Shown here piece after piece: positions 584 to 31,155 of a DNA stretch of 32,000 nucleotides. This DNA comes from Rufibacter sp. XAAS-G3-1. GTDB taxonomy: Bacteria; Bacteroidota; Bacteroidia; Cytophagales; Hymenobacteraceae. The DNA lies in the NCBI RefSeq assembly GCF_013623775.1, contig NZ_JABFAM010000010.1, positions 157,550 to 189,549 of the forward strand. The letters run 5' to 3'. Numbering within the stretch: the stretch's first letter is position 1; each line of letters starts with the position of its first letter. The translations under genes and the position numbers were made by a program. The notes below the pieces were generated by a model. That model was not told the origin of the DNA. It worked only from the letters and a program-made list of their open reading frames with translations, and did not search any database.

Positions 584-623
584 CCGTTTTAAGGCTACTT
601 TTCTGAAAACAGCCCCCAAACGG
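584..623. repeat. Dispersed palindromic repeat, degenerate full copy
   Basis: ccgttttaaggctactttt-ctg-aaaacagcccccaaacgg. The arms are imperfectly complementary and follow the GTTTT..GGC..TTTT / AAAA..GCC..AAAC pattern seen at more than 12 other sites in the window. Confidence 0.6.
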
Positions 624-743
624 AAGCAAGGGCGGCCCCTTGACTGGCCCTGAAATCAAAGCCAGACCCGCGTATACGCCGGTGCACCCTGCAACCTACT
701 TCTGTATACTGCGTTTCTATTTCGTAACCAACACAATACTACT

Positions 744-977
744 ATGAAAAAGCTACTGATAATAGGCCTGGGAGCGTTTGTTTTCGCCTGCGGCGGCGGC
801 AATGAAACCACCCGAGAAACCACCACCGACCTCTCCAATACCGATGAAAGCGTGGAAATCGGCTCGGGGCAAGAGATTAGCCCGCAACTGGAAGGAGACA
901 GTGACTCTGCCCACGTAGACGTTGATACCGTTTCCAATGCCCAGGAAGTACAGCACGAACAGGAAAAGCACCAGTAA
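744..977 (+). CDS. Small acidic secreted lipoprotein (77 aa), function unknown
   Basis: ATG start. MKKLLIIGLGAFVFAC is a signal peptide with a lipobox-like Cys. The mature part is Glu/Asp/Thr/Ser-rich low complexity. A stem-loop plus T-run follows 22 nt after the stop. Confidence 0.5.
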   Translation: MKKLLIIGLGAFVFACGGGNETTRETTTDLSNTDESVEIGSGQEISPQLEGDSDSAHVDVDTVSNAQEVQHEQEKHQ

Positions 978-999
978 AGGCCCTAGGCCAAAGACCGGC

Positions 1000-1039
1000 A
1001 GGCACCGTCTCCCTTTCTTAAGAGAGGCGGTGCCTTTTG
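1000..1039 (+). terminator. Rho-independent terminator after the small lipoprotein gene
   Basis: aggcaccgtctc (1000-1011) pairs with gagaggcggtgcct (1022-1035): 8 perfect GC-rich bp plus 4 more including a G-U. It is followed by TTTT (1035-1038). Confidence 0.65.
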
Positions 1040-1066
1040 GTTTCCCCGGCTATGGCACAGAGAAAC

Positions 1067-1112
1067 CTTCTGTTTTGGGGCTGTTTTCCTAAAAGCAGCC
1101 CCAAAACAGAAG
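1067..1112. repeat. Dispersed palindromic repeat, near-perfect hairpin; possible terminator for nosY
   Basis: cttctgttttggggctgtttt-cct-aaaagcagccccaaaacagaag. The arms are about 21 bp with one bulge. It lies 55 nt beyond the nosY stop, between convergent genes. Confidence 0.7.
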
Positions 1113-1166
1113 CTCTTAAATTATACTCCCCGCCTAAGCCTGGCAGAGACCACCGGCTCCTGCTGC

Positions 1167-1934
1167 CTATAGATCCCTTCGGGAGAAAATCCTTCGGGAG
1201 CTTAGCACCGGCACCAGAATCCAGACCACCATCAGCCCGAAGGCCAGGGAAATTCCCCAGAGGCTCCCCAGAATGCTCTTGTACAACGCCCCGGTATAGC
1301 CCATGAGGGCCGAAATATCCATGTTCAGAAGTACAATAATGCGGGCCAGGTCAATGGGGTTGAGGGCGGTGAGCACCAACGTGGGCGTTTCCAGCGGGTA
1401 ATCACTGAACGAGTACAGAATGAAGAGCACAATGCCGTCATAAATGAGGGCGAAGTAAAACCAGAGCAGCAGCGCCACGCCAATGCCTTTGGCCTTGTCA
1501 CGGGTTATGACCGAGGCCAGAAACGCCATGCCCACAAAGATGAATGTGATGAGCACGCCGGTGAGCAACAAATATAGCCCGGTCACCGAGGCTCCCAGCA
1601 GCAGCAAGGGCATTCCCACGCCCAACACAAACGCCCCGGCCAGGGAACAGGCCACGCCCAGGTACTCGCTCATGAAAATCTTCCGGCGGTGAATGGGCTG
1701 GGCCACCAGCAGTTCTATGAACTCATAGGAGTTGTAGAAGTGCGTGGTGGCAAACACAATGCTGATGAGCGGCACGGTGAGCAGCACCAGGTTCAGCAAA
1801 CTCAGCACCGCTTTGTCGGGGTTTCCGCCCAGGCTGAACAGCCCAATGGTGAGCAGCAGCAGAAACGCCGTGTACGCCAGCACAATCTTGTTGCGCACAA
1901 TATCATAAAACACGTATTTGATAATCTTGCCCAT
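1167..1934 (-). CDS. nosY: NosY, ABC-2 type permease of the NosDFY complex
   Basis: 255 aa, multi-helix hydrophobic protein. It starts 3 nt after the nosF stop, in the canonical nosD-nosF-nosY order downstream of nosZ. Confidence 0.85.
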   Translation of the reverse strand: MGKIIKYVFYDIVRNKIVLAYTAFLLLLTIGLFSLGGNPDKAVLSLLNLVLLTVPLISIVFATTHFYNSYEFIELLVAQPIHRRKIFMSEYLGVACSLAGAFVLGVGMPLLLLGASVTGLYLLLTGVLITFIFVGMAFLASVITRDKAKGIGVALLLWFYFALIYDGIVLFILYSFSDYPLETPTLVLTALNPIDLARIIVLLNMDISALMGYTGALYKSILGSLWGISLAFGLMVVWILVPVLSSRRIFSRRDL

Positions 1935-1937
1935 GGC

Positions 1938-2645
1938 TTAGTCTTCTTGGTTCATCATTTTGGCAATGGCCCGGCTCAGGCGTTCTTCTTGGGTGTGGGC
2001 CTTGAGGGCCGAAATGGTCTGGTGGAACTTCAGCTGCCCGTCCATGAGGCACATCACCTCATCGGCCACCTCCTCAATCTCGCTCATGATGTGCGAGGTA
2101 ATGAGAATCAGCTTGCCTTTCTTTTTTTCCTTCAGGATTTTGGCCTTCAGGATTTCGGCCGAGACGGGGTCTAGCCCGGCGGTGGGTTCATCCAGAATGA
2201 GCACCTGGGGGTTGAAGAGAAACGCCAGCGCGGCGCTCACTTTCTGCTTGGTGCCGCCAGACAGGGAGCCCATGCGTTTGTCATACATCTCCGGTAGCCC
2301 GTACAGCCCAATCAGTTCCTCGTCTATCTGCTGGGCGTCTTTCCTGATGTCCCGGATCATGGAGATGACCTGCCGGATTTTCATGTTCTCTGGGTAGCGG
2401 CCAATCTGCGGCATGTAGCCAATCTGGCTACGGTAGGCGTACTGTTTGAGAATGCTCTGTCCGTTCATTTTAATGTCACCGCCGTCTGGCAGCACCATGC
2501 CCAGAATACATTTGCTCATGGTGGTTTTGCCCGAGCCGTTGGGCCCAATCACAGAGATGACCCGCCCCGCCTCAAAGTGCACGCTCACGTCTTTCAGCAC
2601 CGAAAGCTTGCCGTACGACTTATGTAAGTTTTCTATGGTTATCAT
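1938..2645 (-). CDS. nosF: NosF, ABC transporter ATP-binding protein
   Basis: Walker A GPNGSGKT, ABC signature LSGGTKQK, Walker B LILDEPTAGLD. The context is between nosD and nosY. Confidence 0.9.
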   Translation of the reverse strand: MITIENLHKSYGKLSVLKDVSVHFEAGRVISVIGPNGSGKTTMSKCILGMVLPDGGDIKMNGQSILKQYAYRSQIGYMPQIGRYPENMKIRQVISMIRDIRKDAQQIDEELIGLYGLPEMYDKRMGSLSGGTKQKVSAALAFLFNPQVLILDEPTAGLDPVSAEILKAKILKEKKKGKLILITSHIMSEIEEVADEVMCLMDGQLKFHQTISALKAHTQEERLSRAIAKMMNQED

Positions 2646-2710
2646 GGAAGCTCAATCAGTTTTTGGAAATACAAGGTAAACCCCTATTGGCTAGCTGTCT
2701 TTCCTGGATT

Positions 2711-2752
2711 TCTGTTTTAGGCCTATTTTCTGGAAAATAGGCCTAAAACAGA
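2711..2752. repeat. Dispersed palindromic repeat, perfect copy (19-bp stem, 4-nt loop)
   Basis: tctgttttaggcctatttt-ctgg-aaaataggcctaaaacaga. It is followed by a partial extra arm, aaaaacaggcctggtttc (2753-2770). It lies inside the nosD-nosF gap. Confidence 0.85.
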
Positions 2753-2771
2753 AAAAACAGGCCTGGTTTCA

Positions 2772-2890
2772 GAGTAAGAATTAAGTTTAGACTTCGCGCT
2801 TCATAAGCGCAAACGGCAAAAGCAAGAATCTGTGTCTGTGCCATTGCCGTTTGCGCTTATGAACCCAACATGCAAACTTAATTCTTACTC
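2772..2890. mobile_element. Nested-hairpin MITE-like element (119 bp) between nosD and nosF
   Basis: Outer 17-bp perfect inverted repeat: gagtaagaattaagttt (2772-2788) / aaacttaattcttactc (2874-2890). Inner 20-bp perfect inverted repeat: ttcataagcgcaaacggcaa (2800-2819) / ttgccgtttgcgcttatgaa (2844-2863). There is no ORF. The mobility claim is inference. Confidence 0.5.
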
Positions 2891-2905
2891 CTTCATCAGG
2901 AAACG

Positions 2906-4180
2906 CTAAACAGCCTGGTGGTCAATTCTCCGCATCAAAGGTTGTTCATCAATCAACTGGTCTGGGATAAAGCTGGGCAGCACCTTCTCTATGCTGTCCA
3001 GCAAATCAACCATAAAGCTGCGCATGAACATGACGGAGGGCGGCACCCGCTCCACCAGCATGGAGTACAGACTTACGGGGCGGTACGGCACATCGCCCTG
3101 CTGGTCTTTGTCCAGGTCATAGCCGGTGTACTTGTCCCAGTAGTTGTGCTCAAAGTGGTTTTCCTGGATGCTGCCGTTGGTGCTCACGTCAAAGGAGTTG
3201 CCGGTGAAGTTGTTCAGCCGGAACGTGTCCTCAATGCATGTGGTCATCAATTTGATGGCCCAGCCGTTGCGCTCAAAATCGTTGCTTTTTATATCCAGTT
3301 GGCTGGAGCTTTCCATGTGAATGGCGGTGGTGTTGCGCCGGAAGGTGTTGTGGTGGATCACACTGTTGCTGATGTCCTTCAGCAGGAGGCCGTAGGAGGC
3401 GGCGCCCCAGTTTTCCTCAAAGGTGTTGTACTCCATCCGGACATTGTTGGTGTACATCACGGCCACGCCCGCCCCGTTGTTCCGGAAGGTGTTATGGGTG
3501 TACGTGTTGCCGTCTGAGAACATGAAGTGCATGCCGTAGCGCATGTTCTGGTGGCTCACGTTGTTGCGTACCTGGCTGTTCTTCACCACCTCCAGGTAAA
3601 TGCCGTCGCGGTGGCCCTGCACGTTGTTGTCGGTAATCTCAACATTGTCTGTGTAGTACAGGTGAATGGCGTTGCCCAGGGAAGATTCTGTTCTGCCCTT
3701 GTTCTCCCCTATGATATTATTCCCCCTGATGACAATATTGTCAGAGTTTTGCAGGTAAATCCCGAAGTAGGTTTTCAGGATGGTATTGTCCAGTAGTTTG
3801 ATATTGCTGCGCTGAAACACCCTGATGGCGGCATCATCCCTGGTATAGCTGGTGGCCACGTTTTTGAGCGTGAGCCCCTGGATGGTCACATCGTCGGCGG
3901 TTACCGCAATAAGCTGCCCCGTGAAGTTGCCGTCAATGACCGGGTTGTTCTTCCCGATTAGGGTGAGTGGCTTGTTTACCTCAATCCTGGATTCCTGGTA
4001 CACGCCGCCGTTCACCAACACGGTATCGCCGGGCTTGGCCTGCTGCACCGCCTGCTTCACTGATGTAAGGGCACAGGTTTTGCATACCGTAAGGGTGGCC
4101 CCCGCTGCGGTTTGCGCCAGTACTAACGGCAGCAAGACACTGGCTACTGTTACCAAATAGTTAATGGAGTTTCTCATCAT
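2906..4180 (-). CDS. nosD: NosD, periplasmic copper-binding beta-helix accessory protein
   Basis: 424 aa with an N-terminal signal peptide. It has the repetitive N-x-I/V-x-x-N beta-helix pattern (e.g. NNIIGEN, DNNVQGH, RNNVSHQN, HNTFRNN) typical of NosD/CASH-domain proteins. It overlaps the nosL stop by about 20 nt. Confidence 0.9.
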   Translation of the reverse strand: MMRNSINYLVTVASVLLPLVLAQTAAGATLTVCKTCALTSVKQAVQQAKPGDTVLVNGGVYQESRIEVNKPLTLIGKNNPVIDGNFTGQLIAVTADDVTIQGLTLKNVATSYTRDDAAIRVFQRSNIKLLDNTILKTYFGIYLQNSDNIVIRGNNIIGENKGRTESSLGNAIHLYYTDNVEITDNNVQGHRDGIYLEVVKNSQVRNNVSHQNMRYGMHFMFSDGNTYTHNTFRNNGAGVAVMYTNNVRMEYNTFEENWGAASYGLLLKDISNSVIHHNTFRRNTTAIHMESSSQLDIKSNDFERNGWAIKLMTTCIEDTFRLNNFTGNSFDVSTNGSIQENHFEHNYWDKYTGYDLDKDQQGDVPYRPVSLYSMLVERVPPSVMFMRSFMVDLLDSIEKVLPSFIPDQLIDEQPLMRRIDHQAV

Positions 4181-4628
4181 TTTTCACGATTGCCAGCACC
4201 TGTTCCCAGGTGAGCAGTTCTGCGCCCTGCTCCTGCTGTATTTTCTTAGCAGCCTCTTCCGTAGAGACGGCCAACAGGTTCATGCCCATGGGGCTGGGTA
4301 AAGCTGCGCTCCGCACAAAGTGCGCATCGTTTACCTTTAGGAGTTCTGTAGGGTTTGAAAAGTCGGTTACCATCAGAAAAGAGGCTTTCTGGGCTTCTTC
4401 CGGGTTACTGTTGACATAGGCGGCCAGGCATTCAACGGCGTCAAAAAAGGAAGGCTTGCCCTTGTCATTCACCAACTCTGCCCCGTACCGCACATCTGTA
4501 ATGGTCATGTTGCAATGCGTGCAGTTGGCATTGCCGTAAGGAACAGGCTTGGGCTCCGTGGAGCAAGCCGTTAGGAATAAAATGGCGGGCACCACCCAGC
4601 CATAGGTGCGGGATAAGATTCGTTTCAT
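4161..4628 (-). CDS. nosL: NosL, copper chaperone lipoprotein
   Basis: 155 aa. It has a canonical lipobox LTAC and the NosL-type CTHCNM motif followed by YGAEL. Its position is between the nosB-like gene and nosD. Confidence 0.85.
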   Translation of the reverse strand: MKRILSRTYGWVVPAILFLTACSTEPKPVPYGNANCTHCNMTITDVRYGAELVNDKGKPSFFDAVECLAAYVNSNPEEAQKASFLMVTDFSNPTELLKVNDAHFVRSAALPSPMGMNLLAVSTEEAAKKIQQEQGAELLTWEQVLAIVKNDEKLH

Positions 4629-4641
4629 GAGAGAAAGAGAT

Positions 4642-5226
4642 TTATTGCAAGGCCGCTTTTGGCTTAGAACTTAGATAATACACCAACCAGGCAAACAAGA
4701 CCGCCAGCAAAATACCCAAACTACCCCAAGATGGCAAAGACAAAGCATCAAAGTTGAGGAGTTGCTTTCTTCCTAGCATAGGCGGTATGTAGGTCATATC
4801 GGGCACTTTGATAGGAGCCTGTGGGTTCAGGTTGGTTCCGAATTCGTGCAACCAAAGGTAAAAGTCCAGTAAACCCACGGCACCGGCCACCATCAGCAGA
4901 ATTACCCAGCCCAGCACCAGCTTTCTTTTCCCTAGAAAGGCCACAAAAACGCCTGTAACCATAAGAAAGACCACAATGTAAGGCATGACTTTCAGCTCGG
5001 CAAACGATTCTGCATGGATGGGGGCCATGCCAATGTAATGGTTCAGGATGTTGAAGTTCTGGAGCACGCCTTCCGTACTACCGCCCAGTTTGTTCACCCA
5101 GATGTGTAATTCCAGCCCTTCGGGGTATTGGGGGGCTTCCAGGTAGATCTTCCACATAGGGAAGAGAAACAACAAGCCCAGCGACAAGGCTGCGAAAGCC
5201 ATCAATCCTTTATGGTAAGCTATCAT
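4642..5226 (-). CDS. Clade-II nos cluster membrane protein (NosB-like)
   Basis: 194 aa with about 4 hydrophobic helices. It lies immediately downstream of nosZ and 13 nt upstream of nosL, the position described for the clade-II-specific membrane protein. Assignment is by context, not by recognised motifs. Confidence 0.55.
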   Translation of the reverse strand: MIAYHKGLMAFAALSLGLLFLFPMWKIYLEAPQYPEGLELHIWVNKLGGSTEGVLQNFNILNHYIGMAPIHAESFAELKVMPYIVVFLMVTGVFVAFLGKRKLVLGWVILLMVAGAVGLLDFYLWLHEFGTNLNPQAPIKVPDMTYIPPMLGRKQLLNFDALSLPSWGSLGILLAVLFAWLVYYLSSKPKAALQ

Positions 5227-5243
5227 CCTTTTTAGGTTAAGGT

Positions 5244-5292
5244 GAAATAAAAAAAAGACAGCGGAGTCTGTTTAGGAACCTCCGCTGTCTTT
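5244..5292 (-). terminator. Intrinsic terminator/attenuator between nosZ and the accessory genes
   Basis: A 13-bp stem, aaagacagcggag (5254-5266) / ctccgctgtcttt (5280-5292), with a 13-nt loop. On the minus (nos) strand it is followed by an 8-U run (plus-strand A-run 5249-5256). Confidence 0.55.
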
Positions 5293-5307
5293 TTCATTTT
5301 GAAGAAA

Positions 5308-7359
5308 TTACTTGCTTAAAGAAGCGGTGGCCGGAGGCACCGGCTTTTTGACACCAGTAGAGAATTTTATAGGAACGGTAGATCCCCTTTTAGACACCCG
5401 TACGTATCCCTGCATTTCCTGGTGCAAGGCAGAGCAGAAGTCTGTACAGTAGAAAGGGAAGATTCCTTCCTGTTTGGGTACCCACCGCAAGGTCTGGGTG
5501 GCACCCGGCATAATCAGGGTCTCGGCGTTAGTAGCCCCCATGATGGCAAAGCCGTGCGGTACGTCCCAGTCCTGCTCCAGGTTGGTTACGTGGAAGAGAA
5601 CGGTGTCCCCTACTTGTATGCCTTCAATGTTATCGGGCGTGAAGTGGCTTCTAATGGAGGTCATGTTCACTTTCACGGTTCTGCCATTGCGGGTTACGCT
5701 CACGTCTTTCTCGTTTTTCACGGCATCTGGGTGTTTGTTTGCATCCAGTTTAAAGAACTTGACGCTGTTAGGCGCTATCTTGTTGGCGGCGATGCCCTGC
5801 GCGTAATGCGGCTCTGCCAGGGTAGGGAAGTCCAGGAGCAGTTTCATCTTCTCCCCGCTGATGTCTATCAACTGGGCAGAGTGCAGCAACTCGGGGCCGG
5901 TGGGCAGGTAGCGGTCTTTGGTGATCTTGTTCATCGCGATCAGGTACTTGCCGTAAGGCTCCTTGGTATCACCGCCCGGGATCATTAAGTGGCCGGGAGA
6001 GTAATACACCGGAATTCTGTCTTTCACCTTGAAGTCTTTCAGGCTCCATTTCACTACCTCAGAAGAAACGAACATAGTAGAGTACGCATTGCCTTTGCCG
6101 TCAAACTCAGTGTGCAACGGCCCTAAGCCCGGTTCTTTCACCTCTGCGTGCAGCACAGACTCATATTTGAACACCGGAATACCGTTCACCTCCCCGTCAA
6201 AGTCTTTGTTCTGGATGGCTTTCTGCATTTTAGAGAAAGAGAACACCGGCAGCGAAGAGGCCAGTTTACCGTTTACCACCATGTACTCGCCACTAGGGTC
6301 TACGTCAATACCGTGCGGCGATTTAGGCGCCGGAATCAGGTACATCATGCCAGGGCATTCTTCCGGCAGCAGGTAGCGTACCTTCTTAATCACGTGAGAT
6401 TTTGCCTGATGCGTGCCATGGTCTTTGATGTTGTGGTAATAGTTGGCAGGCATCTCATGGGTCTTGCCTTCGGCGGCATACTTAGCCGCCAGTTTCCAGT
6501 TGATGGCCGCTAGGTAATCACGGTCATTCTGGGAGGCACCCAGTTCTTTCAAAGTACGAGCCTTCTCTGTGTTGTAGGTGGTGAAAAACACCCAATCTCC
6601 AGAGGGGCCTTTGCCGCCGTTGGCCAGGTCATAGTCAAAGCCGGGTACCAAGATCTGGAAGTCAAGCTCCATGTGCCCATTGCCTTCATTTGTTTTGATG
6701 AAGGAGATAGACCCTCTGAATTTGTCTTTGTATTCGTCAAAACTGGCATCGCCAACCCCTCCTTTAGACAGGTCAATGGGAACGCTGAACCGGGTACCGG
6801 CCAAGATATACTCATTGTTGTTGGTAGGGTAAGGCGAGCAGTGGTTACCGGCGGAGTTAGGGATTTCCATGATCTCGGTGGTTTCAAAAGTCGCTAAATC
6901 AACTTTCGCCACGCGGGGGGTGTTGTTTCCGTTCACGTACAGGAACTTGCCATCGGCCATGCCATCGGTGCGGGACAACTTAGGATGGTGAAGGTCGTCC
7001 CAGGGCACAAAGCCGTGCGAGGTCATCAGCATAGGCTTAGTCTCCTCATTATAGCCGTAGCCGTTCTCGGCGAATTGGCTAAAAACCGGGATTACCTTGA
7101 GTAGCCTGCCGGAAGGGATACCGTAAACAGACACCTGGCCGTTGAACCCGCCGGACAGGAAAGAGTACAGCTCATCGTGCTTGCCCGGTGCCACATACAC
7201 TGCCGTAGCGGCATCTGCGGCAACGGTGTTATCTTTGACATTGGCATCATCCCCTTTTCCAGAGCTATTACAGCTTTGCAGCAAGGTACCAGCAGCCAGC
7301 GCCACAAACAGGCCGACTTTAGGAATAATACTTTTAAATGTATTCATTCGGGTTTCCAT
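5308..7359 (-). CDS. nosZ: Nitrous-oxide reductase NosZ, clade II (Sec/lipoprotein-type signal)
   Basis: 683 aa. It has the CuZ-region DDLHHPK motif and the C-terminal CuA motif CTDFCSALHQEM. The N-terminus MNTFKSIIPKVGLFVALAAGTLLQSC has no twin-arginine motif. Confidence 0.95.
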   Translation of the reverse strand: METRMNTFKSIIPKVGLFVALAAGTLLQSCNSSGKGDDANVKDNTVAADAATAVYVAPGKHDELYSFLSGGFNGQVSVYGIPSGRLLKVIPVFSQFAENGYGYNEETKPMLMTSHGFVPWDDLHHPKLSRTDGMADGKFLYVNGNNTPRVAKVDLATFETTEIMEIPNSAGNHCSPYPTNNNEYILAGTRFSVPIDLSKGGVGDASFDEYKDKFRGSISFIKTNEGNGHMELDFQILVPGFDYDLANGGKGPSGDWVFFTTYNTEKARTLKELGASQNDRDYLAAINWKLAAKYAAEGKTHEMPANYYHNIKDHGTHQAKSHVIKKVRYLLPEECPGMMYLIPAPKSPHGIDVDPSGEYMVVNGKLASSLPVFSFSKMQKAIQNKDFDGEVNGIPVFKYESVLHAEVKEPGLGPLHTEFDGKGNAYSTMFVSSEVVKWSLKDFKVKDRIPVYYSPGHLMIPGGDTKEPYGKYLIAMNKITKDRYLPTGPELLHSAQLIDISGEKMKLLLDFPTLAEPHYAQGIAANKIAPNSVKFFKLDANKHPDAVKNEKDVSVTRNGRTVKVNMTSIRSHFTPDNIEGIQVGDTVLFHVTNLEQDWDVPHGFAIMGATNAETLIMPGATQTLRWVPKQEGIFPFYCTDFCSALHQEMQGYVRVSKRGSTVPIKFSTGVKKPVPPATASLSK

Positions 7360-7389
7360 GATTAATAGGAGGTTTAATTTTAATATCTA

Positions 7390-7908
7390 CTAGCCCTTGC
7401 TGTCGTTCTGTCTCAGATACTCCAAGATAGCCCTGGCATCTGACTCAGAAACGTTCTGGTTGGTCATCTGGGTGAGGTGCTCAGCCAGCAGCTTTTTAGC
7501 TTCGGGGTCTTTCTTGGTCATCTCCTCTGGGTTTACGATCATGTTCATGATCCACTCCGGCTTGCGGCGCTCTGTCACCCCTGCCAGTCCCGGGCCTACT
7601 ACTTTCTGATCACTCAGTTGGTGGCAGGCGGTACACTTACCGTCAAAGATGGCTTTGCCGCTAGTGGCGAGGGCCTGGTCTATCTCCGCTCCCACCTCTA
7701 CGGTCTTCACGGGGCCTACACCTAATCCGTCATCTTCTGCGGCCTCCTCTGCCGGGGCAGCGGCGGTCTGCTCATCCTGCTCATTCTTGTATTGCTCCGC
7801 ATACCCCTCATTTCCACCAGATGAGCAACTGAAGAGCATAGCACTTCCTATAAAGGTTGCAGCGATTAACATTGGCTTGATTTTCAGATTCAAAAGGTTC
7901 TTTTTCAT
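7390..7908 (-). CDS. Class I c-type cytochrome lipoprotein, probable electron donor to NosZ
   Basis: 172 aa. It has the signal plus Cys AMLFSC, an Ala/Glu-rich linker, and a single heme motif CTACH in a GKCTACHQL...GPGL context. It lies 30 nt upstream of nosZ on the same strand. Confidence 0.85.
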   Translation of the reverse strand: MKKNLLNLKIKPMLIAATFIGSAMLFSCSSGGNEGYAEQYKNEQDEQTAAAPAEEAAEDDGLGVGPVKTVEVGAEIDQALATSGKAIFDGKCTACHQLSDQKVVGPGLAGVTERRKPEWIMNMIVNPEEMTKKDPEAKKLLAEHLTQMTNQNVSESDARAILEYLRQNDSKG

Positions 7909-7955
7909 AATGTTAAATTTTAAGGATGAAGCTTATTTTGGGTTTGTTACTGCAA

Positions 7956-7963
7956 CAAAGGTA
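7956..7963 (-). promoter_or_regulatory. Candidate -7 box (TAccTTTG) for the cytochrome c-nosZ operon
   Basis: The minus strand reads TACCTTTG, matching the Bacteroidetes -7 consensus TAnnTTTG. It lies 47 nt upstream of the cytochrome c ATG. No clean -33 TTG is present at canonical spacing. Confidence 0.35.
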
Positions 7964-7986
7964 GATGGGTTACAAAACCAATTATA

Positions 7987-8020
7987 AGACCTTTATCTCT
8001 TTTAATAATGACCTTTATCA
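7987..8020. promoter_or_regulatory. Pair of GACCTTTATC boxes (AGACCTTTATCT / TGACCTTTATCA), 22 bp centre to centre
   Basis: A 10-nt exact direct repeat at 7988-7997 and 8010-8019. The second copy reads TGAC-CTTT-ATCA (TGA-N6-TCA), resembling CRP/FNR/DNR-family half-site geometry. It sits in the divergent nos / qNor-side intergenic region. Confidence 0.4.
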
Positions 8021-8043
8021 TTTTCTCCTGGTGGCTAGTACCA

Positions 8044-8051
8044 GAACTTTG
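8044..8051 (+). promoter_or_regulatory. Candidate -7-like box (gAacTTTG) for the 8072 gene
   Basis: Seven of eight informative positions match TAnnTTTG. It lies 20 nt upstream of the ATG at 8072 and about 42 bp downstream of the centre of the second GACCTTTATC box. Confidence 0.25.
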
Positions 8052-8071
8052 GCGGGAAGAAAGCACTACTC

Positions 8072-8467
8072 ATGGCACACGCCATTTACTACCTACTAAT
8101 AGTCAGCACCTTATCCTTGTCTTTAAGCAAAACAGGGTTCTATGTGCTGTTCAAGGTGAAACAGGAATTTATAGCGGAAAATCTCTGTGAAAAACGCCAT
8201 AATCCTCACGCTCAATGTTATGGAAAATGTTTTTTAAACAAGCAACTTAGAAAGCAAGCCCAGCGGGAAACCCGGTTACCGGTGCAGGAGAAGAAAAGCA
8301 CTCTTGACCTACTGGCCACCGTCACAAAGGTAGAGGTGAAACCGGTTTCTACGGGCGCGCTACCAGCGGTTTATGGCCCCGATTATACTATTGTCGTCTA
8401 CACCATTCCTGCCTTTGCCATCTTCCATCCGCCCCGCCTTTCTGACTTGATCCTTACCATTACCTAA
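8072..8467 (+). CDS. Small membrane-anchored protein with a C-X10-C-X3-C motif, function unknown
   Basis: 131 aa with an N-terminal hydrophobic segment, then ENLCEKRHNPHAQCYGKCFLNKQLRK. I recall similar CxxK..P...CxGKCxLxKQL motifs in uncharacterised Bacteroidetes proteins but cannot name a family. Confidence 0.5.
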   Translation: MAHAIYYLLIVSTLSLSLSKTGFYVLFKVKQEFIAENLCEKRHNPHAQCYGKCFLNKQLRKQAQRETRLPVQEKKSTLDLLATVTKVEVKPVSTGALPAVYGPDYTIVVYTIPAFAIFHPPRLSDLILTIT

Positions 8468-8472
8468 GGCTT

Positions 8473-8506
8473 GCAGGTCTGCCTGCCCTATGGCAAACAG
8501 ACCTGC
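8473..8506 (+). other. GC-rich hairpin after the 8072 gene (no T-run)
   Basis: gcaggtctg (8473-8481) pairs perfectly with cagacctgc (8498-8506) around a 16-nt loop. It could be a processing or partial termination site. Confidence 0.3.
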
Positions 8507-11964: not shown

Positions 11965-11983
11965 TTGATTTGTAATTACCTGT

Positions 11984-23919: not shown

Positions 23920-26263
23920 CCTCGCCCCTACAGAACCCGCGGTAAAGCTTCTCATTGTGGATGACGATGAGGTAGACCGGATGATTATACAACGGTCACT
24001 GAGAACGGCCCGGGTAGAAGCTTCCATCAAAACCGCCGCCCTGGGAACTGATGCGCTGACTGCCTTGGAGCAGGAAACGTTTGATTTCATTTTCATTGAC
24101 TTCATGCTGCCCGACATGAACGGCCTGGAACTTCTGCAGGAGATACGGGAAAAGGGTATTACCACCCCGGTATTGATTGTGACCTCCCAGGGCGATGAGC
24201 GCATAGCCGTGGAAGCCATTAAAACCGGGGCCTCAGACTATCTGCCCAAGACCTTGCTCACCCCCGAAGGCATCTCCAAAAGCATCAGGTCGGCCATCCG
24301 GCTGCACAGAATAGAACAGGAGCGGCTGCAGACCCAGGAACAACTGGCCAACACCCAGAAGCAACTGGAAACCGTTATCAACGGCGCCCCCATTATCCTC
24401 TGGGCCACTGACCAGAACGGCATCTTCACCATGACGCGCGGCAAAGGGGTTTACCTTATTGGCAAAGAAGAGCATGAATCTGTAGGCCTTTCCATTTTTG
24501 ACGTTTACCAGGACTACCCCAGTATTACCAAATGCGTCCACCACACGTTAAAGGGGCACAAAGCCATGTGCACGGTGAACATCAAAGGCGTCTGGTTTGA
24601 CTGCCTTTTTCTGCCGTTAAGAAGTGCCACCAATGAGATGAACGGCATTATTGGCGTGTGCTACAACATATCTGAGCGCATCCAGATTGAAGAGGAGCTG
24701 AAAAGGGCCAAAGACGAAGCCCTGAGCATGGCGCAGGTGAAAGAGCAGTTTTTGGCCAACATGAGCCACGAGATCAGAACGCCCATGAACGGTATTCTGG
24801 GTTTAACCGAAATTTTGGCAAAAACCCCCTTAAACGAAGAACAAAAAGAATACCTGCAGGGCATCCATACCTCGGCCAATAACCTGATGGTGATCATCAA
24901 TGATCTGCTTGATTTCTCAAAGATAGAGGCCGGTAAAATCACGTTTGAGGTCATCCCCTTCAACGTACAGCAATTGGTCAAACAACTGCTGGATGTGCTG
25001 GAGATAAAAGCCAGGGAACGGCAAAACACCTTGAAGATTCTCTTTGACCAAGACATTCCGCCCTTGGTGGAAGGCGATCCGTTCCGGCTGGGGCAGATCC
25101 TCAACAACCTTCTGGGAAACGCCATCAAGTTCACCCAGCAAGGCACCGTGCGGCTGAATGTGGAGGTAATTGCCCAGGCAGAAAACCAGTTGCAGCTTGA
25201 ATTCACCGTGCAGGATACCGGCATTGGCATCCCCGAAGAGAAACTGGATACCATCTTTGAGAAATTCACCCAGGGCAGCAATGACACCACCCGCAAGTTT
25301 GGCGGTACCGGGCTGGGCCTTTCCATTGCCAAAGAACTGGTGGAGGCGCAGGGCGGCCATATTACGGTGGAAAGCAAAGTCAACCAGGGCAGCACCTTCC
25401 GTTTTGTGCTTCCTTTTCAGAAAATAGACGCAAAACCAGACCAAACCCTCCCCTCCCCCCCGCTCCCAAGCCCGCCCCTCCACGTACTCCGGAACGCCCG
25501 GGTCTTACTGGCCGAAGATAATCTGGTGAACCAGATGCTGGTATCCAAGGTACTGCGCGACCAGGAGGTGGAAGTGACCATGGTCAATGACGGAAAGGAA
25601 GCCCTAGACCTGCTGGCCCAGGAACCGTTTGACCTTATCTTGATGGACATGCAGATGCCCGAGGTAGACGGATATGAGGCCATGCAGCACATACGCGAGC
25701 ACATGCCCGCCCATAAACACATTCCCATCATTGCCTTAACGGCGCACGCCTCTCAGGGCGAGTTCAACCGATGCCTGGCCTCCGGGGCCAATTCCTATAT
25801 CTCCAAACCGTTCAAAGAAGAGGAACTGCTCCAGGAGATTGCCACTTTGCTTCAGGCCAAAGCCCGGGTAAAACCTACCCCCTCGCCAGTTTCCCCGCCA
25901 AGGGAAGTAGAGATAGACCTTACCTATCTGGAAAGCTTCGCGAACGGAAACACTGAGTTCATGCGCGACATTCTCAAGCTGTTCATTGAGCAGACGCCGC
26001 GTCTGGTGCAGGAGTTAGCCAAGGCCGTTTCGCGCTTTAATTGGGCCGAGGCCCGAACCATTGCCCACAAGATCAGGCCCTCCATCTCGTTGGTGGGCAT
26101 CCAGCAATTGGAGGACTTAAACAACACCATTGAACACTCTGCCCAGAACCGTACCCATTTAGATCAACTACCGGCACTAGTAAACCAGTTGGTCACTTTG
26201 GTTGATCGCTCCATTGAACAGTTAAAGCACGAACTGGAGCATCTGCAAGGCAAACCGGTATAA
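23903..26263 (+). CDS. Hybrid sensor kinase REC-PAS-HisKA-HATPase-REC-HPt
   Basis: 786 aa. N-terminal REC (LLIVDDDEVD...FIDFMLPDMNG); PAS-like segment (ILWATDQNGIFT); H-box SHEIRTPMNGILG; DTGIGI and GGTGLGLSI; second REC (VLLAEDN...ILMDMQMPEVDG...ISKP); C-terminal HPt (IAHKIRPSISLVG). It has a TTG start and overlaps the previous gene by 17 nt. Confidence 0.9.
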   Translation: MNSPTNLAPTEPAVKLLIVDDDEVDRMIIQRSLRTARVEASIKTAALGTDALTALEQETFDFIFIDFMLPDMNGLELLQEIREKGITTPVLIVTSQGDERIAVEAIKTGASDYLPKTLLTPEGISKSIRSAIRLHRIEQERLQTQEQLANTQKQLETVINGAPIILWATDQNGIFTMTRGKGVYLIGKEEHESVGLSIFDVYQDYPSITKCVHHTLKGHKAMCTVNIKGVWFDCLFLPLRSATNEMNGIIGVCYNISERIQIEEELKRAKDEALSMAQVKEQFLANMSHEIRTPMNGILGLTEILAKTPLNEEQKEYLQGIHTSANNLMVIINDLLDFSKIEAGKITFEVIPFNVQQLVKQLLDVLEIKARERQNTLKILFDQDIPPLVEGDPFRLGQILNNLLGNAIKFTQQGTVRLNVEVIAQAENQLQLEFTVQDTGIGIPEEKLDTIFEKFTQGSNDTTRKFGGTGLGLSIAKELVEAQGGHITVESKVNQGSTFRFVLPFQKIDAKPDQTLPSPPLPSPPLHVLRNARVLLAEDNLVNQMLVSKVLRDQEVEVTMVNDGKEALDLLAQEPFDLILMDMQMPEVDGYEAMQHIREHMPAHKHIPIIALTAHASQGEFNRCLASGANSYISKPFKEEELLQEIATLLQAKARVKPTPSPVSPPREVEIDLTYLESFANGNTEFMRDILKLFIEQTPRLVQELAKAVSRFNWAEARTIAHKIRPSISLVGIQQLEDLNNTIEHSAQNRTHLDQLPALVNQLVTLVDRSIEQLKHELEHLQGKPV

Positions 26264-26273: not shown

Positions 26274-26318
26274 CTTGGTTTTCAGGCCGATTTTAAGAAA
26301 TTAGCCTAAAAACCAAGC
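26274..26318. repeat. Variant copy of the dispersed palindrome
   Basis: gcttggttttcaggccgatttt-aag-aaattagcctaaaaaccaagc. The outer 15 bp are complementary with one mismatch. It starts 11 nt after the stop at 26263. Confidence 0.65.
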
Positions 26319-26335: not shown

Positions 26336-26857
26336 ATGAACACGCAACTTCAAACCCTTTTTCAGCAGCTGGAAAAACAGCGGGAAAAATTCAGTTCATG
26401 GGTGGCGAACGCTCCGGCTTCTGCGCAGCACCAGCAACCTGCCCCAGACCAATGGTCGGCGGCGCAGGTGCTGTACCATTTAGCCCAGGTAGACAAACAG
26501 GTGGTAGCGGCCTTGGAGAAGCGAGTGGCCAGCGGCAAACCCCTGCGGCCGCTTCGCTGGAGTACCCGTTTCAGGTCTGTTTTACTGAATCTAGCCCTAA
26601 AACTGCCTATCAGATTCAAAGCCCCGGCCGCCGTGCGTGACGTTCCAGACCAGGTGCAGGTGGCCCAGGTCATTACCCAGTGGCAAGAGACAAGGGCGCG
26701 GCTTCATGCGTTTCTCGCGTCTTTTCCAGAAGGTCAGCTGAACAGAGAGGTCTTTTTCCATCCCCGTTCCGGGATGATCACCCTGCCCCAAACGCTCCGC
26801 TTTCTGCTAGAGCACACCCACCACCACCGAAGACAGATGCGGAGGCTTCTTTCCTAG
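26336..26857 (+). CDS. DinB-family (DinB_2) metal-dependent four-helix-bundle protein
   Basis: 173 aa with WSAAQVLYHL, FFHPRSGMITL and LEHTHHHRRQM, the His-triad pattern typical of the DinB superfamily. Confidence 0.8.
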   Translation: MNTQLQTLFQQLEKQREKFSSWVANAPASAQHQQPAPDQWSAAQVLYHLAQVDKQVVAALEKRVASGKPLRPLRWSTRFRSVLLNLALKLPIRFKAPAAVRDVPDQVQVAQVITQWQETRARLHAFLASFPEGQLNREVFFHPRSGMITLPQTLRFLLEHTHHHRRQMRRLLS

Positions 26858-27517: not shown

Positions 27518-28435
27518 ATGGCTGAGTTCACGGAAAGATACATCAACCCGTTCACCGACTACGGTTTCAAGAAGCTGTTCGGGGAAGAGCCCAACAAGGA
27601 TTTGCTGCTGGACTTCCTGAACGTGCTCCTGCAGGAGGAACAGGGCGAAATCATAGACTTAACGTACCTGAAGAGCGAACACCTGGGAACGGGCGAACTG
27701 GACAGGAAAGCCATCTTCGACCTGTACTGCGAGAACGAGAGAGGCGAGAAGTTCATCGTGGAGCTGCAGAAGACCAAGCAGAACTTCTTCAAGGACAGGA
27801 CGGTCTACTACTCCACCTTCCCCATCAGGGAGCAGGCCAAGCGGGCCGACTGGAACTACGAGCTGAAGGCGGTCTACACCATCGCCATCCTGGACTTCGT
27901 GTTCGACGAGGACAAGCAAGACCCCGCCAAGTTCCGGTATGACATCAAACTCTCTGACACCGAAACAAAAGAGGTGTTCTACGACAAACTCACCTTCATC
28001 TACCTGGAGATGCCCAAGTTCAACAAGACCATTGAGGAGCTGGAGACCAGGTTTGACAAGTGGCTGTACGTGATCCGGAACCTGAACCGGCTGGACAAGG
28101 TGCCCGAGAAGCTGCGGGAACGGGTCTTCGAGAAGCTGTTTGAGACGGCCGAGATAGCCAAATTCACCCCAGAACAGATCCGCTCCTACGAGGACAGCCT
28201 GAAGTATTACCGCGACATGAAGAACTCGCTGGACACCGCCAGGGAAGAAGGATTGTTGGAGGGAATAGAGAAGGGAATAGAGAAGGGAATAGAAAAAGGA
28301 ATAGAAGAAGGGAAGATGGTGGTAGCCGTTGAAATGATAAAGGCGAAGGAGCCTCTTGAAAAGATAATGCGGTTCACAGGTCTGTCACGTGAGCAAGTGG
28401 AGGAACTGAAAACAAACCAGCGTAACCACTCCTGA
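27518..28435 (+). CDS. Rpn/YhgA-like PD-(D/E)XK recombination-promoting nuclease / putative transposase family protein
   Basis: 305 aa. The N-terminus YINPFTDYGFKKLFGEE and the core IFDLYCENERGEKFIVELQK (D...E.Q/K) match the Bacteroidetes PDDEXK putative-transposase family. The C-terminal tail carries (GIEK)3GIEE. Confidence 0.8.
   Translation: MAEFTERYINPFTDYGFKKLFGEEPNKDLLLDFLNVLLQEEQGEIIDLTYLKSEHLGTGELDRKAIFDLYCENERGEKFIVELQKTKQNFFKDRTVYYSTFPIREQAKRADWNYELKAVYTIAILDFVFDEDKQDPAKFRYDIKLSDTETKEVFYDKLTFIYLEMPKFNKTIEELETRFDKWLYVIRNLNRLDKVPEKLRERVFEKLFETAEIAKFTPEQIRSYEDSLKYYRDMKNSLDTAREEGLLEGIEKGIEKGIEKGIEEGKMVVAVEMIKAKEPLEKIMRFTGLSREQVEELKTNQRNHS
28262..28309 (+). repeat. In-frame 12-bp tandem repeat x4 (GIEK GIEK GIEK GIEE) inside the Rpn-like gene
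   Basis: ggaatagagaag ggaatagagaag ggaatagaaaaa ggaatagaagaa. The repeat is in phase with the CDS: (28262-27518) is divisible by 3. Confidence 0.9.
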
Positions 28436-28464: not shown

Positions 28465-28500
28465 GATGTTGGATTGCTGATTGTTGGATTGCTGATTGTT
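28465..28500. repeat. 15-bp tandem repeat (about 2.4 copies) just downstream of the Rpn-like gene
   Basis: gatgttggattgct / gattgttggattgct / gattgtt. Confidence 0.85.
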
Positions 28501-28567: not shown

Positions 28568-28763
28568 GCTGGGTAGTCTGGAGGCTACCCTCGTTGCCCG
28601 GCAGCGAAAACGGCATTACTGGTCTACTCCCTGGGCACCAGAACCAAAAGCTGGCCTCTTCGCCGTACCTCTTTTGACCCACTTTCCAGAAAAGAAGCCC
28701 AAAACCAACATAGCCTTGTAGTGACTTCTGCCGTAGTTAAAAGCTCAACCTAAGCTTTACCCT

Positions 28764-29522
28764 ATGGAAAAGAATGTCCCCACCTACCTGAGCTTCCTGG
28801 CCATTCTGCTACTGTTCGGTTGCGGCGGCGGCAACACAGACTCCAACGTGCAAGCCCCCGGCGGCGAGAAAACCACCAAAACCAAAGTGCTGGAAGCCGG
28901 GGCCGATGTGCTGCAAAAGAAAACCCCGCTCTCCAAAATAGATGCCTACCTCAACGGGTTCCACTTCTACAACGGCAACCTGGAGGGACAGATGGAAGCC
29001 CACCACTACGTGACCCAACTCAACGAAGACCTGCACCAGGCGCTCATGTATGACGGCAACGGCGAGAATGCCAAACTGATGGGTGTGGAGTACATCATCT
29101 CTGAGAAACTCTTCAAAACCCTGCCCCTGGAGGAACGCAAACTCTGGCACAGCCACCACTACGAAGTCAAATCAGGGGAGCTGATTGCGCCCGGAATTCC
29201 GGCCGTGGCCGAGCATGAGCTGATGGAGAAACTGGTGAGCACCTACGGCAAGATCTTCCACACCTGGCACACCGACCGTGATTTGGAACTTCCGCTGGGC
29301 AGCCCCATGCTCATGATGGGCTTCACCAAAGACGGCCAACTGAACCCAGAACTGCTGGCCGACCGGGACAAACGCTTCAACGTCTCCACGGCAGAAAAAC
29401 GGAAACAGCGTGCAGACATTCCCCTGCTTACTGTAGTGGAAGGCGCTAATGCCTGGGAAAAAGGCGACGTGCGCCAACTACAGTTCACGAACAAATACGA
29501 GGCCCCCGAGCACCAGCACTAG
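28764..29522 (+). CDS. DUF1264 (OBAP-like) family lipoprotein
   Basis: 252 aa with the lipobox-like signal LLFGC. MGVEYIISEKLFKTLPLEERKLWHSHHYEVKSGELIAPG matches my recollection of the DUF1264 signature (GVEYIIS...LWHSH.YEVKSG). Confidence 0.65.
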   Translation: MEKNVPTYLSFLAILLLFGCGGGNTDSNVQAPGGEKTTKTKVLEAGADVLQKKTPLSKIDAYLNGFHFYNGNLEGQMEAHHYVTQLNEDLHQALMYDGNGENAKLMGVEYIISEKLFKTLPLEERKLWHSHHYEVKSGELIAPGIPAVAEHELMEKLVSTYGKIFHTWHTDRDLELPLGSPMLMMGFTKDGQLNPELLADRDKRFNVSTAEKRKQRADIPLLTVVEGANAWEKGDVRQLQFTNKYEAPEHQH

Positions 29523-29560
29523 CGTTTTAGGCCTACTTTCCCAAAAACAGCCTCAAAACG
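29523..29560. repeat. Dispersed palindromic repeat starting at the first base after a stop codon
   Basis: cgttttaggcctactttc-cc-aaaaacagcctcaaaacg. Confidence 0.7.
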
Positions 29561-29591
29561 AAAGGCCCACCCCAATTTGGAGCGGGCCTTT
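29561..29591. terminator. Bidirectional hairpin between the convergent DUF1264 gene and ffh
   Basis: aaaggccc(a)c / g(c)gggccttt form a stem of 9 bp with one mismatch. A/T runs flank it on both sides. Confidence 0.5.
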
Positions 29592-29643
29592 CTATGAATC
29601 AAGCGGTTAGTCCACTAATAACTCATAACCAACCACTACACTA

Positions 29644-30981
29644 CTATCGTTTTCCCATCATGCTGCCCAGCTTGGCCAGACCGCCTTTGGTGCCGGCCAT
29701 CTTGTTCATGCTCTTCATCATTTTGCGCATGTCATTGAACTGCTTCATGAGGTTGTTTACCTGCTGAATGGTAGTGCCGGAACCCTTCGCAATACGGTTA
29801 CGGCGGCTGCCAGAAATCATATCTGGGTTCTGGCGTTCTTCCTTGGTCATGGATTTGATGATGGCTTCAATCGGGGCGAAGGCGCTTTCGTCAATGTCCA
29901 CGTCTTTCAGCATTTTGCTCACACCGGGGATCATGCCCACCAAGTCTTTGATATCGCCCATCCGCTTGATTTGCTCCAACTGCGACAGGAAGTCATCAAA
30001 GTTGAACTGGTTTTTACGGATGTTCTTGTTGATACGCTTGGCCTCATCCTCGTCAAAGGTCTGTTGCGCACGCTCTACCAACGAGATGACGTCTCCCATG
30101 CCTAAAATACGCTGGGCCATCCGGTCTGGGTAGAACAGGTCCAGGGCTTCCATTTTCTCGCCGGTAGAGATGAACTTGATAGGTTTCTCCACTACGGCTC
30201 TGATGGAAAGAGCGGCTCCACCACGGGAATCACCGTCCAGTTTGGTCAACACCACGCCGTCAAAGTTAATGCGCTCGTTGAAGGTTTTGGCGGTGTTCAC
30301 GGCATCCTGCCCCGTCATGGAATCTACCACAAACAAGGTCTCAGTAGGTCTAATGGCCTCCTTGATGTCATAAATCTCCTGCATCATCGCCTCATCCACG
30401 GCCAGACGACCGGCGGTGTCAATGATGACCACTTTCTTGCCGGTGCGCTTGGCGTGCTCCACGGCATTACGGGCAATAGAAACCGGGTCTTTGGATTCGC
30501 GTTCGGCGTAGAAGTCTACCCCAACTTGCTCGGCCAAGACGTTCAACTGGTCAATCGCGGCGGGGCGGTACACGTCGCAGGCAGCTACCAGAACGCCTTT
30601 GCCTTGTCTTTTCAGGAAATTAGCCAGTTTACCGGTGAAGGTGGTTTTACCGGAACCTTGCAGGCCGGCAATAAGCACAATCGCGGGCGAGCCGTTGATG
30701 TTGATGTCCTGCTTCTCGCCACCCATCAACTCGGTGAGTTCTTCGTGCACAATCTTTACCATCAGTTGGCCCGGCGAGACGGCAATCAGCACGTCGCGGC
30801 CCATGGCCTCGTCCTTGATTTTGTCGGTCACGGTTTTGGCCACCTTGTAGTTCACGTCGGCGTCCACCAGGGCGCGGCGCACTTCTTTTATGGTTTGGGC
30901 GACGTTGATTTCAGTGATGCTGCCCTGGCCCTTCAGGGTTTTAAAGGCACGGTCTAGCTTGGTACTTAAATTCTCAAACAT
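29644..30981 (-). CDS. ffh: Signal recognition particle protein Ffh
   Basis: 445 aa. The NG domain has GLQGSGKTT, DTAGR and TKLDGD. The C-terminal M domain is Met-rich (MRKMMKSMNKM...MMGKR). Confidence 0.95.
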   Translation of the reverse strand: MFENLSTKLDRAFKTLKGQGSITEINVAQTIKEVRRALVDADVNYKVAKTVTDKIKDEAMGRDVLIAVSPGQLMVKIVHEELTELMGGEKQDININGSPAIVLIAGLQGSGKTTFTGKLANFLKRQGKGVLVAACDVYRPAAIDQLNVLAEQVGVDFYAERESKDPVSIARNAVEHAKRTGKKVVIIDTAGRLAVDEAMMQEIYDIKEAIRPTETLFVVDSMTGQDAVNTAKTFNERINFDGVVLTKLDGDSRGGAALSIRAVVEKPIKFISTGEKMEALDLFYPDRMAQRILGMGDVISLVERAQQTFDEDEAKRINKNIRKNQFNFDDFLSQLEQIKRMGDIKDLVGMIPGVSKMLKDVDIDESAFAPIEAIIKSMTKEERQNPDMISGSRRNRIAKGSGTTIQQVNNLMKQFNDMRKMMKSMNKMAGTKGGLAKLGSMMGKR

Positions 30982-31027
30982 GTGGGATATATGACTGAGT
31001 GAATTGTTTTTCAGTGAGTGACAAAGA

Positions 31028-31035
31028 CAAAAATA
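31028..31035 (-). promoter_or_regulatory. Candidate -7 box TAttTTTG upstream of ffh
   Basis: The minus strand reads TATTTTTG, 46 nt upstream of the ffh ATG (30981). No clear -33 TTG was seen. Confidence 0.3.
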
Positions 31036-31115
31036 CGCAGAATTTGCGGAAGTTCACCATCTTTTAGCCGCAGGTACGTATATTCGGACTTGACTATACA
31101 AGAACGCGGCGTCAG

Positions 31116-31155
31116 CTGTTTTGGCCCTGTTTTACCTGAAACACCCTAGAAACAG
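31116..31155. repeat. Dispersed palindromic repeat, degenerate full copy
   Basis: ctgttttggccctgtttta-cctg-aaacaccctagaaacag. Confidence 0.6.

Follow-up and report, generated by a model that had tools for sequence, protein, structure and literature searches.

What are the small palindromes that recur between the genes of the soil bacterium Rufibacter sp. XAAS-G3-1, and what keeps them recognisable over evolutionary time? The question is raised by a 32,000-nt stretch of this genome (contig NZ_JABFAM010000010.1, positions 157,550 to 189,549; here called the window, with all coordinates counted from its first base), for which an earlier note had proposed an abundant, intergenic family akin to the repetitive extragenic palindromic (REP) elements. 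As argued below, the palindromes probably constitute a lineage-specific, untagged REP-like family of small intergenic repeats present in Rufibacter, Sabulibacter and one Cytophagales metagenome-assembled genome (MAG). When the half-site GTTTTAGGCCTGTTTTC was used as a probe with at most three mismatches, the window gave 13 matches against 0.15 expected, a number equalled by none of 100 shuffles of the window, and a scanner requiring both arms returned 14 copies in the window and none in five shuffles. Thirteen of 16 matches were intergenic, while intergenic DNA makes up 14.7% of the window (p = 6e-9), and all 13 full palindromes lie between genes. Both the abundance of the family and its enrichment over shuffled controls were thus borne out. 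A covariance model built from the copies re-detected every copy listed by the earlier note, and a copy is present at each of its coordinates. Three entries that it had taken for halves (12180-12198, 12695-12716 and 28687-28707) are indeed copies but prove to be full, degenerate palindromes (12159-12198, 12676-12715 and 28669-28707), and the arms at 19146-19201, rightly described as perfect, measure 30 nt (19143-19172 and 19175-19204) instead of 27 bp. The placements that it had cited relative to stop and start codons are correct, but its statement that nearly every intergenic gap is occupied was too strong, since 10 of the 21 window gaps of at least 60 nt hold a copy. An Rfam scan of the window yielded no family match; its sub-threshold hits, located at the perfect palindrome (2694-2761), were chance matches to models of microRNAs. 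A tRNA scan of the window found none.

The consensus of the unit reads c-y-GTTTT-AGGCCTG-TTTT-Y-NN-R-AAAA-CAGGCCT-AAAAC-r-g, spanning about 40-48 bp around a 2-nt centre. Well-kept arms were partnered in 231 cases and solo in 11, and so the whole palindrome, not the half-site, is the unit. Within each arm (c-y-G-TTTT-AGGCCTG-TTTT) the two T-runs start 11 nt apart, and the run spacing of the entire element is T4-N7-T4-N4-A4-N7-A4. These T/A runs are 95-99% conserved across the family (slightly less at their centre-facing ends), as against 60-90% for the centre of the arm. The centre of the palindrome is 2 nt long in 204 of 225 copies and variable in sequence; the bases beside it, a pyrimidine on the left and a purine on the right, do not covary, so that the loop is effectively Y-NN-R. 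Well-kept copies extend outwards by about four additional palindromic bases that are specific to each copy (complementarity of 72, 62, 47 and 45% compared to a baseline of 25%). No direct target duplication was visible in the flanks, which are inverted-complementary, not direct, and have no consensus.

The distribution of the repeat was examined in about 0.9 Mb of sampled loci. An exact half-site scan of one genome per species found multiple loci in seven Rufibacter species, in Sabulibacter ruber and in the Cytophagales MAG SVL1_sbin.7; single matches also occurred in unrelated phyla, in about the number estimated for a 17-mer in such a collection. Full copies followed the same division, with several per locus in the Rufibacter, Sabulibacter and MAG loci and 0 or 1 in loci from unrelated phyla. 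In this sample, part of which had been selected for the exact half-site, a copy occurs about every 1.7-3 kb. In unselected syntenic loci the covariance model detected 4-11 sites in each 21-kb stretch of Rufibacter or Sabulibacter, compared to 0 copies in 42 kb of syntenic Pontibacter DNA. A metagenome scan for a perfect 36-mer returned one short contig, and literature searches found no description of the Rufibacter palindrome or of its occurrence in the genus. This is a previously undescribed, genus-level family.

Many of the copies are old. The window shares orthologous sites with the 21-kb syntenic loci of six other genomes, namely after the TPR/OmpA gene, the pyruvate dehydrogenase E1-beta gene, the next small gene and the hybrid kinase gene, and upstream of ybaB. 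Some of these sites hold only a degenerate remnant in one to three species, and near-perfect copies of the MAG correspond to degenerate ones in other species. As judged by comparing sequences, one clear gain stands out: nosD and nosF overlap without a gap in Rufibacter sediminis and Pontibacter akesuensis, and in the window they are separated by an insert of about 274 nt that comprises a unique 120-nt hairpin, a half-unit and a near-perfect copy (2709-2754). Because every Rufibacter and Sabulibacter locus compared has copies at orthologous sites, and all compared sites other than this one gain are shared, the family is old and gains are rare in this genome, at odds with the active or recently active propagation that the earlier note had envisaged.

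Which enzyme might have spread the repeat? No Y1 transposase was found in the window, in agreement with the earlier note, which had seen no REP-associated tyrosine transposase (RAYT) or IS200-type transposase there and had proposed looking for RAYTs elsewhere in the genome. Such genes do exist in the clade, but they are flanked by other hairpins. RAYT-A, a 188-aa gene in MAG contig L012, was found by tblastn with E. coli RayT and reaches 93.9 bits with the NCBIfam model for REP-associated tyrosine transposases (cut-off 80); its HUH motif reads SHAH, and two regular-expression hunts for Y1 transposases missed it. On both sides it is accompanied by GTAG-type hairpins (GCGTAGAG..CTCTACGC and CTCGTAG..CTACGAG), not by the Rufibacter palindrome. 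Homologues of RAYT-A fall into two RAYT lineages in Rufibacter. In both R. radiotolerans and R. roseus the second lineage, RAYT-B (L116 and L118), follows hgmA at a fixed locus, and its flanking palindromes, GGAAGTTTATAAACTTCC and CACAAGTT..AACTTGTG, are private to the locus among the sampled sequences; the repeat appears 68-160 nt beyond them, as its background density would lead one to expect. Judged on these two lineages and three loci in total, RAYT-A and RAYT-B are probably not the spreaders of the repeat. Bacteroidetes RAYT subclasses have atypical flanking structures (PMC6006769), and CGTC and untagged palindromic families have no known transposase (PMC3733652).

Other mobile origins fared no better. 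No solo arms bracketing a transposase gene were found in the sampled loci, and a miniature inverted-repeat transposable element was rejected on this ground, on the lack of a direct target duplication and on the absence of linkage to the PDDEXK_2 gene of the window. This Rpn-type, 'transposase-like' gene (27518-28435, between a deaminase gene and a DUF1264 gene) has no homologue in the sampled loci and is present in this genome only; it was discarded as a partner of the repeat, being unique in the sample and lying near a copy that is orthologous to one in a genome devoid of the gene. An integron attC or Xer site was dismissed by reasoning, as the copies in the sampled loci follow housekeeping genes and not a cassette array. 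Separately, GTAG-tagged REP hairpins and inverted pairs resembling REP doublets forming hairpins (REPINs) occur in the clade (L012 1776-2775, L014 960-1130, L006 4210-4380), some of them sitting between two copies of the T/A-run palindrome. The GTAGCGTCG-type pattern had 29 matches in the loci, about the chance estimate for the DNA searched, with clear REPIN-like pairs in L014 and L006.

What, then, holds the copies together? In alignments of orthologous copies pairwise identity was 0.77 for the T/A runs, 0.53 for the arm centre and 0.29 for the loop. The remainder of the gaps, in which promoter and terminator blocks of strong conservation are counted, scored 0.54. Identity between copies was 0.654 for the same site in different genomes, 0.651 for different sites in the same genome and 0.632 for any other pair, the excess within a genome being small (permutation p = 0.03). 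Because orthologous copies are no more alike than unrelated ones, and because the T/A runs are kept, we infer a restoring force: the copies do not decay freely but stay near the family consensus, with the four T/A runs held tightest. Two candidates for this force are copy correction and selection exerted by a partner that recognises the sequence. Both sides of the stem had changed at 11 positions where 8.1 were expected, a count that 11 of 500 shuffles reached, and in the MAG 21 of 94 copies have perfectly matching arms, the commonest number of arm mismatches in the other genomes being 6-7. Compensated arms alone cannot separate selection from copy correction, because template switching within a palindrome also matches the arms. 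A pull towards the consensus irrespective of orthology, together with high copy number, a genus-wide consensus and a location at gene ends, would also be expected of paired DNA-uptake sequences maintained by biased uptake and recombination, like the inverted pairs of DNA-uptake sequences (DUS) in Neisseria terminators. Yet good arms rarely stand alone (231 paired, 11 solo), the repeat is nearly absent from coding DNA, its conserved portion, divided among four runs, is long, and Rufibacter is not known to be competent. We therefore hold this explanation to be highly improbable.

Placement relative to genes was measured with crude gene calls (longest open reading frames). Convergent gaps held 0.86 copies each, tandem gaps 0.55 and divergent gaps 0.34. 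Median distances in tandem gaps were 61 nt to the stop upstream of the copy and 130 nt to the start that follows it, many copies lying less than 30 nt from the stop, and 18 copies were located in divergent, promoter-only gaps. Orientation, as read from the asymmetric centre, showed no bias relative to transcription in the sampled loci. The earlier note had likened the family to bacterial interspersed mosaic elements (BIMEs), a likeness that was not upheld: copies are mostly single, and among 225 copies 33 neighbouring pairs were closer than 400 nt and only 10 closer than 120 nt, without a preferred spacing. Weak repeat-like matches were also noted inside coding genes at orthologous positions (L104 4178-4217, L106 5467-5505, L107 4134-4172, L108 4329-4367, L109 5512-5551, L111 20113-20152 and L038 2508-2546); the genes encode a CHU_C-domain protein and a DUF1858/DUF2249 protein and are read through in frame, for example as VLSLFSEKQPQN. 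These matches could be old in-frame insertions or chance.

The bias towards 3' ends raises the question of whether the hairpins terminate transcription. When each window copy was folded and compared with shuffles (z), four of 13 (those at 1070, 2712, 19154 and 26274) folded far better than the shuffled sequences, and the other nine had z values of +0.6 to -3.2. A T-rich tail (at least six T in the 12 nt after the stem) followed 26 of 114 copies in tandem context, about 77% having no U-tract, and ordinary terminators consisting of a GC hairpin and a T-run lie directly beside copies at 12633-12681 and 18626-18662. The earlier suggestion of general terminators or mRNA-stabilising hairpins is difficult to reconcile with these numbers. 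The family as a whole thus does not combine a GC-rich hairpin with an immediate U-tract, as intrinsic terminators do, but individual copies such as 19143-19204 do. This copy, at site D, forms a long hairpin in six of seven genomes, with a species-specific GC-rich basal stem, compensation at the centre and z values between -10 and -15, and in most of these six it has A-rich and T-rich flanks; in R. radiotolerans the hairpin is shorter and weaker (z -3.8). The site was assessed by folding each sequence, as indels shift the register of a fixed-column alignment. The site D copy is clearly part of a terminator, with the shape of a bidirectional one. Pontibacter, for its part, has an ordinary terminator at two sites where Rufibacter has the repeat. 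On the sense strand 123 G.U mismatches were counted against 88 A.C mismatches (p = 0.019), which hints mildly at selection acting on the RNA.

These observations bear on the alternative that the repeat is not a mobile element at all but a dedicated host signal that marks where transcription units end and is recognised by a sequence-specific protein, be it in the form of an RNA hairpin, of duplex DNA or of a DNA cruciform. Such a signal could act in factor-dependent or roadblock termination, in 3'-end processing or in protection against exonucleases, and its recognition could keep the consensus. The density of about one copy per transcription-unit end and the preference for convergent and tandem gaps would suit it, but half of the window gaps, some operon ends included, have no copy, and the 18 copies in divergent, promoter-only gaps, like window copy 31116, are misplaced for it. 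Positions are kept across the genus and copies are equally near the consensus regardless of orthology, yet many copies are very degenerate and one was gained within an operon, between nosD and nosF. Conservation of the T/A runs where the arms have become unpaired (site C) would point to a reader of sequence, the symmetric orientation would suit two-way action, and the ordinary Pontibacter terminators at two of the same sites also speak for a signal; ordinary terminators nevertheless adjoin copies within Rufibacter itself (12633-12681 and 18626-18662), and no candidate protein was identified. On balance we find a host signal rather unlikely. A specific form of it, in which a lineage-specific signal at transcription-unit ends has a dedicated protein reader, acts as an RNA hairpin or a two-way DNA roadblock and has its consensus restored at fixed sites without a RAYT, is in our estimate unlikely. 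If true, Bacteroidota would possess a 3'-end system that depends on a factor, or else a copy-correction mechanism of a new kind.

The repeat might alternatively function as an architectural DNA site, in which four T/A runs phased by about 11 bp around a dyad form a bent or cruciform-prone structure bound by a nucleoid protein or a topoisomerase; intergenic placement would then reflect where such sites are tolerated. Gyrase and IHF bind REP and BIME elements of E. coli. Conserved T/A runs around a centre that is free to vary, the spacing of these runs, the three AGGCCT boxes lying exactly 20 bp apart at 2709-2770 and the weak covariation of the arms (76.0% of positions paired across the family compared to 74.9% in shuffles) are all in keeping with a DNA structure of this kind. 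Some arm centres do covary, as the excess of both-side changes indicates, the centres at site D are fully compensated and the sense-strand excess of G.U points to RNA, all of which argue against it, and it does not predict the bias towards 3' ends. An architectural role accordingly appears quite unlikely.

Under our preferred reading, an untagged REP-like family, copies entered intergenic DNA before the species diverged and have since stayed at sites near the 3' ends of genes, with occasional gains continuing, of which the nosD/nosF insert is an instance. The restoring force may be a host factor that selects the hairpin or cruciform with its T/A runs, or else gene conversion or re-templating, a mechanism proposed earlier for E. 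coli REPs; Higgins and colleagues, in 1988, reportedly suggested that gene conversion maintains them. The force would be strongest in the lineage of the MAG. Most copies would be at most weak hairpins in 3' untranslated regions, and a minority, as at site D, would have been turned into real terminators by the addition of a GC-rich basal stem and A/T flanks.

Several points weigh against this reading: (i) the densities derive from about 0.9 Mb of loci, which were partly selected for the exact half-site; (ii) the covariation of the arms is weak across the family; (iii) the only gain found is a composite 274-nt insert and not a clean 40-bp insertion, and no pair of empty and filled sites with clean boundaries was found among the compared loci; (iv) the poor folding of most window copies makes a hairpin-dependent role doubtful for the majority; and (v) no mobilising enzyme was identified for the repeat.

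REP-like repeats are well studied in Proteobacteria and poorly charted in Bacteroidota, and the family offers a comparative system in which several genomes carry copies at the same sites, near-perfect in one lineage and, in the others, drifting at the centre while holding the four T/A runs. This contrast makes it testable whether palindromes persist by selection, by gene conversion or by re-insertion. In practical terms the repeat probably disrupts assemblies made from short reads; it also marks breakpoints of synteny and could aid strain typing. Some short contigs of MAG SVL1_sbin.7 (among L001-L103; for example L086, L018 and L047) start or stop within about 100 nt of a copy, which suggests that the repeat fragments such assemblies.

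The individual copies in the window illustrate the range of preservation (bits denote the covariance model score). The gap 518-1166 contains a degenerate copy at 584-623 (47.9 bits; 14 of 19 arm pairs; minimum free energy (MFE) of -11.1 kcal/mol, z -3.2) and, 58 nt past the end of the nos operon after nosY, a well-kept GGGGCT/AGCCCC variant at 1066-1113 (56.3 bits; z -11.6), whose R. sediminis orthologue has an AGGCCT core and whose position in Pontibacter is taken by an ordinary GC hairpin followed by a T-run. The near-perfect copy in the nosD/nosF insert (2709-2754; repeat I2, 100% complementary; 58.9 bits) has 22-nt perfect arms and is abutted by an additional half-unit, AAAAAACAGGCCTGGTTTC, read directly from the sequence at 2753-2770. 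Next to it in the insert, 2771-2891 forms a near-perfect hairpin of about 120 nt with nested inverted repeats (GAGTAAGAATTAAGTTT..., ATAAGCGCAAACGGCAA...); the 261-nt region folds with -118.6 kcal/mol (z -12.5), and the hairpin has no second copy in the approximately 0.9 Mb of related loci. Three degenerate copies share the gap 11965-12777, at 12159-12198 (41.5 bits; 13 of 19 pairs; z -2.4), 12398-12437 (39.8 bits; z -1.8) and 12676-12715 (repeat I3; 45.2 bits; z +0.6), the left arm of the last overlapping the T-tail of the ordinary terminator hairpin 12633-12681.

The site B copy (17482-17521; 48.6 bits; z -2.5) begins 3 nt past the stop of the TPR/OmpA gene and has orthologues in five of six other Rufibacter and Sabulibacter loci, R. 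tibetensis retaining a degenerate remnant. At site C (18668-18707; 40.6 bits; 12 of 19 pairs; z -0.3), between the ordinary terminator 18626-18662 and an ATG at 18709, arm pairing is lost and the T/A runs are kept, and a copy occupies the same position in all six other loci. The site D copy (19143-19204; repeat I1; terminator scan) sits at the tip of a perfect 30-bp hairpin that lies between two convergent genes and is flanked by A-rich and T-rich stretches. At site E (26274-26318; 44.2 bits; MFE -22 kcal/mol, z -7.2), 11 nt past the stop of the hybrid histidine kinase gene, orthologues are recognisable in three of six other loci and degenerate in the remaining three. A weak degenerate copy lies upstream of the DUF1264 gene (28669-28707; 31.6 bits; z -0.2), and a better-scoring one (29522-29561; 47.8 bits) has its first base in common with the end of the DUF1264 stop codon and is in a gap convergent with ffh; an ordinary GC hairpin follows directly at 29562-29592, and the sediminis-like locus L104 has a copy at the same place after its DUF1264 gene. 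The last copy, 31116-31155 (42.2 bits; z -1.7), is in the divergent gap upstream of ffh. Weak matches within genes for a glycosyltransferase, a histidine kinase and DinB (14392-14431, 25395-25442 and 26566-26605) were set aside as probable codon-driven look-alikes, the one in the histidine kinase gene encoding the canonical GSTFRFVLPF end of the ATPase domain, and a solo arm at 13686-13702 is probably another.

The window itself carries a clade-II nos cluster, a quinol NO reductase, histidine kinases and ffh, and its E1-beta protein is 98-99% identical to those of R. sediminis, R. tibetensis and R. glacialis. The nos cluster and the NO reductase (1167-11964) stand where other Rufibacter have hisS, a gene of the aromatic-amino-acid-lyase family and a CHU_C-domain gene, and the break in synteny coincides with the 813-nt gap 11965-12777 that carries three repeat copies. 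Within this gap an 18-bp perfect inverted repeat, AGAGCTTGTTTAAATTTC (12001-12018 and 12147-12164), encloses 128 nt with a GTAG-type palindrome, GTAGCGCTGCTAC; its outer parts look like repeat arms, as if an insertion had split one copy. Upstream of the E1-beta gene, the block CAGATGCGTTTTTTTATTTGTG.CGCATGTCTTAATTTTACC...TAGATAGACG (17545-17620) is near-invariant in seven of seven genomes and, with its small hairpin, is a candidate leader or promoter element. Tandem repeats were seen in intergenic DNA at 28470-28500 (GATTGCTGATTGTTG, twice) and after nosY in R. sediminis (L111 12850-12900), where the 14-nt unit TTTCTAGTCTACAC occurs three times.

How does the family relate to known systems? 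CGTC-tagged and untagged families (Di Nocera et al. 2013, PMC3733652) are likewise small, abundant intergenic stem-loops without a dedicated transposase, and CGTC repeats have been reported in Bacteroidetes (PMC3733652), but the Rufibacter repeat has no CGTC head and ends in C-Y-G-TTTT. Neisseria DUS pairs resemble it as a short consensus, common to a whole genus, that recurs thousands of times in inverted pairs at the ends of genes, whereas the Rufibacter half-sites occur neither alone nor in genes. With the REPIN-RAYT system (Bertels and Rainey) it shares persistence through long vertical descent, a master sequence surrounded by a cloud of variants, a hairpin made of two inverted halves and, in Rufibacter genomes, single-copy RAYT genes at a fixed locus; its halves, however, are not themselves REP hairpins, there is no spacer, and the RAYTs are flanked by other structures. 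The closest comparison is with the REPs, or palindromic units (PU), of E. coli and Salmonella. The Rufibacter repeat differs from them in having neither a GTAG nor a CGTC tag, in being a near-perfect dyad with a 2-nt centre where the REP is an asymmetric stem with a bulge, in its conserved, phased T/A runs, in its mostly single copies without BIME arrays, in its Bacteroidota host and in not flanking a RAYT (the REPtron arrangement) at the loci examined. Like them, it consists of imperfect palindromes of about 35-40 bp in hundreds of copies or more, extragenic and mostly in 3' regions or between the genes of operons, with a consensus common to related species and genera while the flanks diverge, with some orthologous copies, and without the make-up of classical terminators. 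In size, number, placement and the conservation of its consensus across species, the family is like the classical REPs.

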